Below are positions 35,479 to 39,480 of a stretch of 64,000 nt of DNA, piece after piece. The DNA is taken from NCBI GenBank assembly GCA_963798485.1, contig CAWCTR010000030.1, positions 160,001 to 224,000 of the forward strand, in the 5' to 3' direction. Under the pieces are notes generated by a model. It was not told where the DNA came from. It saw nothing but the letters and a program-made list of their open reading frames with translations, and did not search any database. This DNA comes from an uncultured delta proteobacterium (lineage in GTDB: Bacteria > Desulfobacterota > Desulfomonilia > UBA1062). Every line of letters begins with the position of its first letter. The stretch's first letter is position 1. The position numbers and the translations under genes were made by a program.

Positions 35479-36602
35479 GGAATGAATGCCTCTGCAGTCT
35501 TTCTGGATTTTCTGTCAAGTCTCATTATATCTTGCGGTCCTTCTACCGCGGAATCAGTAAGTGTGTCCATGGTCTTTTTCACCACCTGCGTAATCTCATC
35601 AAAGCGGAGCCTGCCTTTCAGGAAGGCACCTACGGCCACCTCGTCGGCAGCGTTCATGATGCAGGGCAGCACTTCCGGCCTGCTCATGGCATGCCTGGCT
35701 ATGGAAAGCGCCGGGAAATTATTTGTATCCGGCGGCAGAAAGTCCATATGCAGGGTTTCAGCAAGGGGCAGGGGCTCAAGCGGCAGCTCCATGCGTTCAG
35801 GCCAGGAAAGGGCATACGCGATGGCCCCGCGCATATCCGGCAATGAGAGCTGGGCCTTGATGCTCCTGTCCATGAACTCTACCATGGAGTGGACAATGCT
35901 TTGTGGGTGGATTGTCACTTCGATTCTCTCTATGTCCACACCAAAGAGCCAGCATGCCTCGATGATCTCGAGGCCTTTGTTCATCATGGTTGCAGAGTCG
36001 ATGGTTATCCTTTTGCCCATAGACCAGGTGGGGTGGTCCAATGCCTCTTCAGGGGTGATATCCTTGAAAGTCCCTGCTGGCCTGTTTCTAAAAGGGCCGC
36101 CTGATGCGGTGAGGATGATGCGGCGGACAGAAGAACGGTTTTCTCCGTTCAGGCACTGAAACACTGCCGAGTGCTCCGAGTCCACAGGGATGATGGGCAC
36201 ACTAAAGTTTTTTGCCTCTTGAAGCAGAAATCTTCCACCTATGACCAGCGATTCCTTGTTGGCAAGGGCGAGCGTTGCCCCTGATCTGACCGCCTCCAAG
36301 GAAGGAAGGAAGCCTGCAGCGCCTGATATGCCGTTCACCACGATATCCGGCTCAGAGCGCCTGATTACCTCAATCGATGAAGACTCGCCGGTAAGGATTT
36401 CAAGTCCTGAAGTAACCGTGAAAGAAGGGGAAGTTGCTCCAAGGACCTTCACACCGAATTCTGCAGCCTGGCTTTCAAGGAGCCTGTTGTTGAAACCCGT
36501 AGACAACCCCACGACCTTGAATTTGCCTGGATGCATACGTATGACATCCAGGGTTGACTCCCCGATGGAGCCGGTTGATCCGAGAACAACAATCCGTTTC
36601 AT
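35475..36602 (-). CDS. dxr: 1-deoxy-D-xylulose-5-phosphate reductoisomerase
   Basis: LGSTGSIG, LANKESL, PVDSEHSA, TASGGPF and HPTWSMGKRITIDSATMMNKGLE. Confidence 0.96.
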   Translation of the reverse strand: MKRIVVLGSTGSIGESTLDVIRMHPGKFKVVGLSTGFNNRLLESQAAEFGVKVLGATSPSFTVTSGLEILTGESSSIEVIRRSEPDIVVNGISGAAGFLPSLEAVRSGATLALANKESLVIGGRFLLQEAKNFSVPIIPVDSEHSAVFQCLNGENRSSVRRIILTASGGPFRNRPAGTFKDITPEEALDHPTWSMGKRITIDSATMMNKGLEIIEACWLFGVDIERIEVTIHPQSIVHSMVEFMDRSIKAQLSLPDMRGAIAYALSWPERMELPLEPLPLAETLHMDFLPPDTNNFPALSIARHAMSRPEVLPCIMNAADEVAVGAFLKGRLRFDEITQVVKKTMDTLTDSAVEGPQDIMRLDRKSRKTAEAFIP

Positions 36603-37087
36603 GGGCCCACACTTTTTCTTGAGTATGTCTGGTTGCCAAGAGTCCGGGGGGCAGTGCTCCCCCCTTTTATAACATGGGGTTGGGGGGTAAGGGGGGCAGA
36701 ACTCCCCCCTTTTATAAAGGGGGGGCGGGGGGGATTTTGAACTAAAAAATTATATATACTCTCCACTACCCCATCGATATGAGTAAGCACTTCATTATTG
36801 TTGAACCTCATTACAGTAAATCCTAATTTGGAAAGATAGGTATCTCTTATACGATCAGCTGATTTTTCTTCTTCAATAAAATGTTGTGAGCCATCAACTT
36901 CAATGATAAGACGGGCACGAGGGCAATAAAAATCGACAATGTAGTTGCCGATGTTTTTCTGTCTGTAAAAATGAACACCGTTGACCTGCTTATTTCTAAG
37001 CTTTGACCAGAGTTTAATTTCCGCATTGGTCATGTCCTTTCTCAAACATCTGGAGATATTTTTGAGATCCCTCCTGTATGGAAGCAT
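36599..37087 (-). CDS. DUF559 (Vsr-like PD-(D/E)XK) endonuclease-domain protein
   Basis: Likely start MLPYRRDLKNISRCLRKDMTNAE at 37087; LWSKLR, FYRQ, YIVDFYC, IIEVDGSQH, D..RD..L...G..V.RF.N. AT-richer than its neighbours. Confidence 0.88.
   Translation of the reverse strand: MLPYRRDLKNISRCLRKDMTNAEIKLWSKLRNKQVNGVHFYRQKNIGNYIVDFYCPRARLIIEVDGSQHFIEEEKSADRIRDTYLSKLGFTVMRFNNNEVLTHIDGVVESIYNFLVQNPPRPPFIKGGSSAPLTPQPHVIKGGSTAPRTLGNQTYSRKSVGP
36646..36738. repeat. Two tandem ~45-bp poly-G/poly-C palindromic units downstream of the DUF559 core
   Basis: GGGGGGCAGTGCTCCCCCCTTTTATAACATGGGGTTGGGGGG and GGGGGGCAGAACTCCCCCCTTTTATAAAGGGGGGGCGGGGGGGATTTT. Confidence 0.85.
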
Positions 37088-37088
37088 G

Positions 37089-37128
37089 AAAATCCCCCCT
37101 ATCCCCCCTTTAGAAAAAGGGGGGAATT
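37089..37128. repeat. Palindromic unit upstream of DUF559, inverted relative to 36700-36738
   Basis: Reverse complement AATTCCCCCCTTTTTCTAAAGGGGGGATAGGGGGGATTTT aligns with AACTCCCCCCTTTTATAAAGGGGGGGCGGGGGGGATTTT. Confidence 0.88.
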
Positions 37129-37203
37129 CTGATGACAGCTTAAAATTATGTGCACAACCATTGTCCCTATTTAAAAAGTGGATGTATTCATGGTTGTCCA
37201 TCT

Positions 37204-38032
37204 TTATGTTGCTATTTTGAGGATACAATAGAGCACACACCCTACAGGGATGATGCCGTCCATCCGGTCCAGCATACCGCCATGGCCGGGGATAAGGTTT
37301 CCCATGTCTTTGATCTGGAACTCCCGTTTGAAGAGCGAGGCGGTGAGGTCTCCTGCCAGGTCAAGAACACCGATGCATGCCGACAGAAGAACCAGGAGCC
37401 ACAAGGGGTAAACGCCCTGGAGGGGGTCGAGCTGATAGGCGATGACTACCTTATTATATAATACAAAGGTAACATAGCCCAACGCGATGCTCGAACATAT
37501 GCCCCCGATAAAGCCCTCAAGGGTCTTTTTAGGACTGAGCCTGGGTGCGATTTTTCGGCTCCCCAAGTTCTTGCCCACATAGTATGCCCCGGTATCCGAT
37601 CCGAAGACACCGACAAGACAATAGATCATCCAGAACCTACCGTCCGTACCTACCCTGAGAAGCACCCAGAAGCCGATCAGGGCCATGGGGTAGATCAGGC
37701 CGGTAATGGAATAGACAAGGTCTTTGGCCCCGGCCTTGTTTTTTTCAAAGAGGAAGAGTGAGGTGATCATCAGGATAACGCTCGTGATGCCGATGGTGAG
37801 GAAGCACCCGTCCGTATCGCCTCTGTTGGCAAGAATGAGGAAAGGTACCGATGCAGCCATGGATATAAAGGCAAGGGCCATGGCGGATGGGTCGATGGCT
37901 ACCCGGAACAGCTCATACATGCACATGGGCACGACCAACAGGGCAATAAGCAGCAATGCCCAGGCAGGGCCGAAGACGGCCGGGATTGCGAACAGAACAA
38001 CCAGGATCAGTGCCCCCTATGATACGTTTCAT
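37204..38032 (-). CDS. cdsA: Phosphatidate cytidylyltransferase (apparent +1 frameshift in a G5 run at 38013-38017)
   Basis: SDTGAYYVG, SPKKTLEG and KDMGNLIPGHGGMLDRMD. The ATG at 38032 directly follows the uppS stop and reads MKRIIGALILVVLF if one G is removed. Confidence 0.9.
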
Positions 38033-38798: not shown

Positions 38799-38831
38799 TT
38801 CCCCTTAATAAGGAGGGAACAGGGAAGATTT
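38799..38831. repeat. Degenerate solo copy of the DUF559-flanking palindrome
   Basis: TTCCCCTTAATAAGGAGGGAACAGGGAAGATTT follows the pattern C-run/TT..AA/G-run/spacer/G-run/GATTT. Confidence 0.5.
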
Positions 38832-38849
38832 GCCCAAACGCATAGCATT

Positions 38850-39062: not shown

Positions 39063-39138
39063 GCTGGAGTAGCTCAATCGGTAGAGCAGCTGATTTGTAA
39101 TCAGCAGGTTGCGGGTTCGAGTCCCATCTCCAGCTCCA
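39063..39138 (+). tRNA. tRNA-Thr(TGT)
   Basis: GCTGGAG acceptor stem, anticodon loop TTTGTAA, GTTCGAG T-loop, CCA end. Confidence 0.95.
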
Positions 39139-39151
39139 GAAAGAGACACCG

Positions 39152-39236
39152 GGAGGGGTTCCCGAGCGGCCAAAGGGAACAGACTGTAAATCTGTCGGCG
39201 AAGCCTTCGGAGGTTCGAATCCTCCCCCCTCCACCA
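39152..39236 (+). tRNA. tRNA-Tyr(GTA)
   Basis: GGAGGGG acceptor stem, loop CTGTAAA, long variable arm, CCA end. Confidence 0.95.
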
Positions 39237-39298
39237 TAAGTATGAGGGATTGCAGGAGACGTGAGTCTTTAAGACTGCACAATCCTAAAAAAGATGAT

Positions 39299-39375
39299 GC
39301 GGGAGTAGCTCAGTTGGCTAGAGCGTCAGCCTTCCAAGCTGAGGGTCGCGGGTTCGAATCCCGTTTCCCGCTCCA
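39299..39375 (+). tRNA. tRNA-Gly(TCC)
   Basis: GCGGGAG acceptor stem, loop CTTCCAA, CCA end. Confidence 0.95.
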
Positions 39376-39402
39376 TATCCCCTCTTAATTATGTGGAGAC
39401 AT

Positions 39403-39480
39403 GCCCACGTAGCTCAGTAGGTAGAGCACTTCCTTGGTAAGGAAGAGGTTTCCCCGGTTCGATCCCGGGCGTGGGCTCCA
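39403..39480 (+). tRNA. tRNA-Thr(GGT)
   Basis: GCCCACG acceptor stem, loop TTGGTAA, CCA end; canonical Thr-Tyr-Gly-Thr-tuf order. Confidence 0.92.

Follow-up and report, generated by a model that had tools for sequence, protein, structure and literature searches.

In the REP/REPIN-RAYT systems, the gene of a REP-associated tyrosine transposase (HUH/Y1) is flanked by inverted copies of a dispersed hairpin repeat. The BoxC/PIT/TMECO repeats, an established kind in E. coli and in hundreds of genomes that is tied to genome instability, have no known origin or mover. Holder et al. (2015, PMC4666352) defined TMECO as C-arm, loop, G-arm, N3 and G-arm and reported 3610 copies across 262 proteobacterial genomes. 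Near the motifs there were, in their words, "never ... remnants of transposases or integrases", and the part of the paper available to us mentions no partner gene, whereas at the locus described here a nuclease gene lies between the units.

On the enzyme side, no function has been assigned to DUF559/YcjD, a very large family for which a structure has been solved. The protein of the present study belongs to it, as do two uncharacterised proteins, YcjD of E. coli (b1289) and NGO0050 of N. gonorrhoeae (PDB 3hrl). I-Bth0305I (PDB 3r3p), a homing endonuclease with the Vsr fold from a phage group I intron, has the catalytic fold and the motif region in common with this protein. The same fold superfamily also includes Vsr and the Caulobacter DUF559 protein VsrA, which has been proposed to act in Vsr-like repair and is linked, in the accessible part of the report, to cytosine methylation and the SOS response (PMC12907096).

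The window, by which we mean the whole stretch of 64,000 nucleotides analysed, comes from the genome of an uncultured delta proteobacterium (G000), and a foreign nuclease-plus-repeat cassette is inserted in it at the junction between cdsA and dxr. The features at and near this junction are as follows.

36603 to 37216, no strand: stretch missing from the cdsA-dxr junction of same-genus relatives (614 nt here versus 13 nt there)
36599 to 37087, minus strand: YcjD-type DUF559 open reading frame of 162 codons plus stop, with the domain at 36740 to 37087 and a 46-codon tail of translated repeat and spacer
37089 to 37131, minus strand: upstream (left-end) unit of 43 nt, reading on the gene strand CAGAATT, C6, T/A-rich loop, G6, ATA, G6ATTTT; single-stranded DNA fold of -10.9 kcal/mol, z -2.4
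36697 to 36738, minus strand: downstream (right-end) unit 1, an inverted copy of the upstream unit, inside the tail of the reading frame
36646 to 36690, minus strand: downstream unit 2, a tandem 45-nt copy of unit 1 (83%) with a partly decayed hairpin
36719 to 36733, plus strand (opposite to the gene): G7-C-G7 run, a candidate quadruplex read from the sequence, fitting G3N1G3N1G3N1G3
36603 to 36645, no strand: outer 43-nt segment from the dxr start to the units, homologous to the start of a remnant at the same junction in the relative G013
37132 to 37216, no strand: outer segment on the cdsA side, with a decayed unit (37162-37184), a short inverted repeat (37151-37161 with 37190-37200) and the new cdsA end
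38800 to 38832 (approximate), plus strand: solo triplex-type unit of a sister subfamily, between uppS and a tRNA cluster

The pattern quoted for the G-run is the canonical quadruplex rule. Pfam was run on dxr, cdsA and the nuclease only; rseP, uppS, a tsaB-like gene and tuf were named by eye.

The preliminary description of this DNA had placed a DUF559 nuclease gene at the cdsA-dxr junction, and the profile search bears this out: the minus-strand frame, of the YcjD type and with the Vsr fold, matches DUF559 (PF04480) at E 4.5e-38 and 129.9 bits, against a cut-off of 20.6 bits, over profile positions 3-108 of 109. The core, given there as 36739-37088 and AT-rich, has indeed 36.2% G+C versus 53.4% in dxr and 53.0% in cdsA, and comprises 116 codons (36740-37087), the ATG lying at 37087-37085 and thus one base off the boundary of 37088. 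While the domain was correctly read, the tail had been overlooked: the frame passes the end of the domain without a stop, crosses both downstream units, adds 46 further codons and stops only at 36601-36599, where its TGA and the dxr ATG overlap as ATGA. By this read-through and overlap, cdsA, the nuclease gene and dxr remain coupled in a single co-directional string. Judged from their protein sequences, the four database proteins closest to it (P0002-P0005, 77-88% identity) likewise read through into dxr with this tail, one of them with one unit fewer, and C-terminal tails of translated repeat are carried by many among the best 120 protein matches.

All 21 invariant columns of the family alignment (31 sequences) are kept in the window protein, including D52, E63, D65 and H69, which have catalytic roles in the fold family and putatively here. 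With an AlphaFold model of pLDDT 88.9, Foldseek ranked 3hrl first (E 1e-7, TM 0.85), then the PvuRts1I nuclease domain and then I-Bth0305I (TM 0.70-0.76), with Vsr (1vsr) further down at E 0.08; profile comparison gave 3hrl at E 5.4e-35 and I-Bth0305I at E 5e-4, and Vsr was matched neither within E 0.01 by profile nor by Pfam. The score against the NCBIfam model for the E. coli YcjD equivalog (NF007294), 77.1 bits, falls below the 218-bit cut-off, and the window protein is therefore a YcjD relative and not an equivalog. PADLOC returned weak local matches to the shared nuclease core only and no defence family. As with I-Bth0305I, we are dealing with an apparently selfish nuclease gene that is present or absent at a conserved site; unlike I-Bth0305I, it is a free-standing frame between units and lies in no intron or intein, its flanks are dispersed repeats and not exon sequence, and its product, apart from about 30 N-terminal residues, is without an additional DNA-binding domain.

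That cdsA and dxr are normally contiguous, as had been stated, was verified in the relatives: the cdsA stop abuts the dxr start in seven of the eight same-genus junctions read, five genomes (G007, G011, G003, G002 and G008) having 13 nt between the two flanking BLAST pieces and two (G006 and G014) showing the cdsA stop and then the dxr start directly. The comparison with empty sites, which the preliminary description had proposed for finding the ends and any target duplication, delimited a net insertion of about 601 nt, with the last four cdsA codons also replaced, and revealed no target-site duplication at this site. The cassette shares terminal inverted repeats with transposons and MITEs and differs from them in the missing duplication and in having no transposase or integrase frame within about 3 kb of the nuclease gene, the latter as previously claimed. 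The 100-nt bins touching the insertion are 0.94-1.0 identical to G007, without a dip beside it, and we therefore rejected the idea that the insertion came in with a long tract recombined from a distant donor. In G013, the flanks of which are only about 74% identical, a remnant of about 93 nt occupies the same junction, and its first ~50 nt and last ~20 nt match the two outer ends of the G000 insertion; this match would fit a partial deletion of the G000-type insertion as well as a separate event that struck this junction again. The public sequencing runs consisted of short contigs only, with one run covering the gene and none bridging an empty or filled junction; a single weak joint in them (side 24, below 95% likeness) was discarded as unusable.

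The layout of the units agrees with what had been described, i.e., inverted units of about 40 bp enclosing the gene with GATTTT inward. The arms at 36697-36738 and 37090-37131 are 42 nt long and 76% complementary (86% over the inner 35 nt), the GATTTT ends of both point to the gene, and the upstream unit, ending at 37089, is separated by a single base (C, 37088) from the ATG. Likewise recovered was the second, 45-bp tandem unit downstream (36646-36687 versus 36691-36732, 83%). The pattern C6TTT..AAAG6 occurs twice in the 64-kb window versus zero times in 100 shuffles, and the computed single-strand folds of the units reach -9.6 to -10.9 kcal/mol (z -2.4 to -3.0). Rfam offered best matches of 12.8-22.4 bits against gathering scores of 40-77, hence no known RNA family.

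What had gone unrecognised is the kind of repeat to which the units belong. Judged by their build, they are class II (C-G-G) triplex-motif repeats of the BoxC/PIT/TMECO kind: both consist of a C-rich arm, a loop, a G-rich arm, a 3-nt spacer and a second G-rich arm, and both are interspersed, often in inverted pairs, and tied to variable loci. The window units differ from TMECO in that their 6-nt C/G arms are extended by T/A pairs and followed by an ATTTT tail, and they do not match the exact TMECO consensus with 9-nt arms (CCCTCNCCC ...); with C6/G6 arms and T/A extensions they are a sister type. The second and only other DUF559 gene of this genome (C1:39464-39778) is also framed by inverted units, and these fit the printed TMECO pattern. 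A relaxed detector found about 66 triplex-type units of several subfamilies in G000, seven of them of the window type, versus the two DUF559 genes. The earlier proposal of a nuclease-plus-repeat mobile system is supported in part: it holds for a recurrent inserted package and fits less well with these numbers. As for the decayed solo unit reported at 38799, a triplex-type unit does exist there (approximately 38800-38832), of a sister subfamily and not of the C6 type.

Two side observations concern the same genome. The second DUF559 cassette adjoins recB, and the RecB nuclease domain holds in-frame translated triplex-type repeats (GEGQGEG-like; G000:C1:39900-41230, L001 1999-3270, minus strand). 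In the window itself, the four tRNA genes (Thr-tgt, Tyr, Gly-tcc, Thr-ggt) at 39063-39480, just before tuf, are ordinary.

The package of left unit, gene and right unit recurs across phyla and in unrelated contexts. We kept 80 of the 595 confirmed places to which the 31-member family profile led in species genomes, and likewise 80 of the 566 places that a single-protein scan gave in metagenomes. By local alignment of the upstream flank with the reverse-complemented downstream flank (score at least 28), inverted flanks were present at 53 of 78 genome loci versus 5 of 780 shifted positions in the same loci (Mann-Whitney p 5.5e-31), and at 51 of the 64 metagenome loci with both flanks complete versus 3 of 418 controls, so that the enrichment which the preliminary description had suggested looking for is evident in both collections. 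A pyrimidine-arm hairpin lies upstream at 67 of 80 loci (27 of 800 control windows) and downstream at 64 of 80 (33 of 800). The strict unit detector, with a background of 30 units in 352.6 kb, revealed a bias in orientation. On the upstream side, C-G-G units were present in 30 of 79 loci and units of the opposite orientation in 10 of 79; on the downstream side, C-C-G units prevailed, with 35 of 77 loci versus 8 of 77. In one sub-clade with unlike left and right units, the contexts are unrelated and the homology extends from the left hairpin to the right hairpin, with sharp ends and no target duplication. Homology bounded by the two hairpins in differing contexts means that the gene moves together with both of its units, as a single piece of about 450 bp.

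We scored repeat type, i.e., whether the hairpin arms were T/A-extended or not, on a protein tree of 75 labelled rows. As scored from the sequences, repeat type follows protein clade, with 5 changes on the tree versus a minimum of 17 and a mean of 22 in 200 shuffles, which is the covariation proposed for checking; this test is inflated by the relatedness of the rows, and the spread of one type across phyla is the stronger point. Both types occur within each of Chloroflexota, Pseudomonadota, Thermodesulfobacteriota and Myxococcota.

The explanation we put forward, which in our judgement has an even chance of being right, is that a selfish cassette, made of a YcjD-type DUF559 nuclease gene between inverted BoxC/triplex-motif units, landed in the cdsA-dxr junction and was then absorbed into the operon, as is suggested by a frame that crosses the downstream units and terminates only at the start codon of dxr, and that the nuclease is the partner enzyme of these repeats. 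The nuclease would cut at or beside a unit or unit pair, in the form of a palindromic duplex, an extruded hairpin or a branched structure, and host recombination or repair would copy the cassette or the units from another copy, much as in homing. Unlike a RAYT, the window enzyme is a PD-(D/E)XK Vsr-fold nuclease with no Y1 transposase match and cannot rejoin DNA by itself, and host repair would thus be needed for the copying. Solo units and doublets would be the gene-less relatives and the landing sites of the cassette. The mobilising role of the nuclease is one that we infer from comparisons of sequence. The likeness to REP/RAYT lies in a single or low-copy gene, in its inverted short-hairpin flanks, in a repeat scattered tens to hundreds of times with doublets among its copies, and in the co-occurrence of gene and repeats, which is looser here. 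The window also illustrates how an essential operon can take up such a cassette and stay intact.

The number of repeats is associated with the presence of the gene, though not strictly. Among the 83 genomes of the same class that are at least 90% complete, 28 have window-type units, and a family match (E <= 1e-15) was found in 13 of these 28 versus 8 of the 55 without units (odds ratio 5.1, p 0.003, uncorrected for relatedness). Similarly, in 121 Pasteurellaceae genomes the gene is present in 38 of 58 with units versus 14 of 63 without (odds ratio 6.65, p 1.6e-6, again uncorrected for relatedness), and in 14 of the 16 with at least 10 units, the exceptions being G138 (24 units) and G202 (13 units). 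The gene accompanies none of the searched unit pattern in 14 Pasteurellaceae and 8 class genomes, a count that refers to this pattern only. Even beside 140-194 units there are only one or two gene copies, and a ratio of 1-2 genes to 10-194 solo units resembles that of REP/RAYT. Nevertheless, of the 16 class genomes with at least 10 units only 9 have a family match, two of these matches being DUF559 domains inside long frames without flanking units, and 7 have none: G022 (124 units), G058 (100), G044 (71, on 9 contigs), G077 (53), G020 (33), G053 (31) and G056 (17). G022 and G020 are empty of the family even at E <= 1, and an inward-facing unit pair in G022 encloses broken frames only and no nuclease. 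In G022, G044, G058 and G077, which have no detectable YcjD-type gene, the 53-124 window-type units are near-identical. The comparison of repeats with and without the gene, as earlier proposed, therefore upholds an association in three lineages and speaks against strict dependence, against which the gene-less repeat-rich genomes are the main evidence; they fit gene loss, or a gene that lands as a hitch-hiker in repeats spread otherwise.

As a separate observation, DUF559 domains without flanking units were also met in frames of 399-1129 codons (L114 in G025, L213 in G042, L219 in G043, L210 in G029 and L220 in G027), which are a different family architecture.

The third lineage is E. coli, where ycjD resembles the window gene in ending within a BoxC-type unit and having a further unit downstream. 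In K-12, the ycjD frame (...SPSP stop) terminates within a decayed right-type BoxC unit, the outer flank of which matches the outer flank of other BoxC copies; downstream follow a 45-nt remnant of the ycjD 3' end and an intact TMECO unit, and the upstream unit is lost. In strain CFSAN061770, the ycjD stop is overlapped by an intact unit. The ycjD region is found in 3375 of 5426 complete E. coli genomes and, according to the available part of a recent report, occupies the position taken by the eefRABCD operon in other phylogroups (PMC12817139). We counted TMECO units directly in 11 E. coli chromosomes: the six with ycjD have 23, 20, 28, 15, 28 and 27, and the five without it have 11, 2, 8, 3 and 0 (Mann-Whitney p 0.004), a contrast that follows the phylogroups and is not independent evidence. 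One likely independent gain of ycjD (CFSAN061770, with 15 units) is barely above the highest genome without the gene (11).

Can the association be explained with the repeats being moved by something else? The alternative that survives best, which we consider rather unlikely, holds that another agent spread the units, and that the DUF559 gene is a free-standing gene of the homing type, for which pairs of units serve only to land or to provide arms of homology, and which has no part in multiplying the solo units. This would account for the repeat-rich genomes lacking the gene and also for the asymmetry that the gene is almost never found without units (78 of 80 loci have a hairpin in at least one flank), the reverse being common; furthermore, the nearest characterised relative is a homing endonuclease. 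Doublets of the order left-spacer-right, with the polarity of the gene flanks, might be its empty sites: they occur in G043, G044 and E. coli (MG1655 has 23 TMECO units and such doublets with 18-30 nt in between), and the order is right-spacer-left in G022 and G000. This difference in polarity counts, as does the missing target duplication, against the nuclease as partner enzyme. However, the junction in the relatives contains no unit that could have served for landing, and here units and gene must have arrived together or stepwise; unlike left and right units travel with the gene; and repeat number rises with gene presence, although some link of this sort is predicted by the alternative too.

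A second alternative, which we regard as improbable, takes the DUF559 protein for a Vsr-like repair enzyme of the housekeeping sort, with units piling up at gene ends or serving as ribosome-binding site, terminator or insulator. The association of VsrA with methylation and SOS, a G6 run 6 nt before the ATG and the stability of the hairpins all agree with such a role. Nonetheless, the gene is patchy, a PF04480 match being present in 4 of 14 same-genus genomes (in G008 and G011 weakly), it is foreign in composition and newly inserted, and, unlike that of Vsr and VsrA, it is mobile with no cytosine methyltransferase gene nearby and, more broadly, no methyltransferase gene adjoining it. As to the units, their spacing to the start varies across loci (median 13 nt, interquartile range 10-25), a T-run is missing from the downstream hairpin, and the same units occur elsewhere by tens to hundreds. 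Finally, a switch by programmed inversion, in which the gene segment would flip between its inverted units, is very improbable, since no invertase gene is nearby, the public-run contigs, sparse in cover, contain no strand-changing joint, and the reported enrichment among predicted inversion targets ("DUF559 domain-containing protein", odds ratio 14.3; "Endonuclease domain-containing protein", 9.6; from the accessible part of PMC9881135) would arise for any gene flanked by inverted repeats and is itself an indirect trace of the inverted flanks of DUF559 genes.

Returning to the nuclease as partner of the repeats, we tentatively extend it beyond this locus. It is possible, if doubtful on the present comparisons, that the YcjD-type DUF559 proteins are the long-missing partner enzymes of BoxC/PIT/TMECO in the manner of REP/RAYT, in ten or more phyla including E. 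coli K-12, that they would recognise a non-B form (hairpin, branched or triplex), and that by cutting they would cause the units to spread and also the genome instability reported at these sites. If true, this would be a second repeat-enzyme partnership beside REP-RAYT, and a mechanistically different one. The link would give the family and the repeats each a testable role, and ycjD makes it testable in E. coli K-12. Our literature searches, which for the most part covered journals other than subscription ones, returned no paper linking DUF559/YcjD to these repeats, the entry on inversion targets in PMC9881135 coming nearest.

Some minor observations on the arrangement of the units may be added. 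A repeated element of 175 nt is present in G000 in two copies, both intergenic and 85.7% identical (G000:C16:5834-6006 and G000:C22:122747-122921), with a right-type and a left-type unit 31 nt apart and their GATTTT ends outward, i.e., opposite in polarity to the gene flanks. The idea that doublet spacers are remnants of gene ends was discarded, no likeness to the gene being found, which also counts against the explanation put forward here. Additionally, tandem or remnant copies of the nuclease 3' end plus right unit lie downstream of an intact gene in two unrelated lineages, namely at L100 (G013:C277) and in E. coli K-12 (L003, 4240-4400). The tandem right unit of the window may be the same phenomenon, and together these copies hint that copying starts or stalls at the right end of the cassette.
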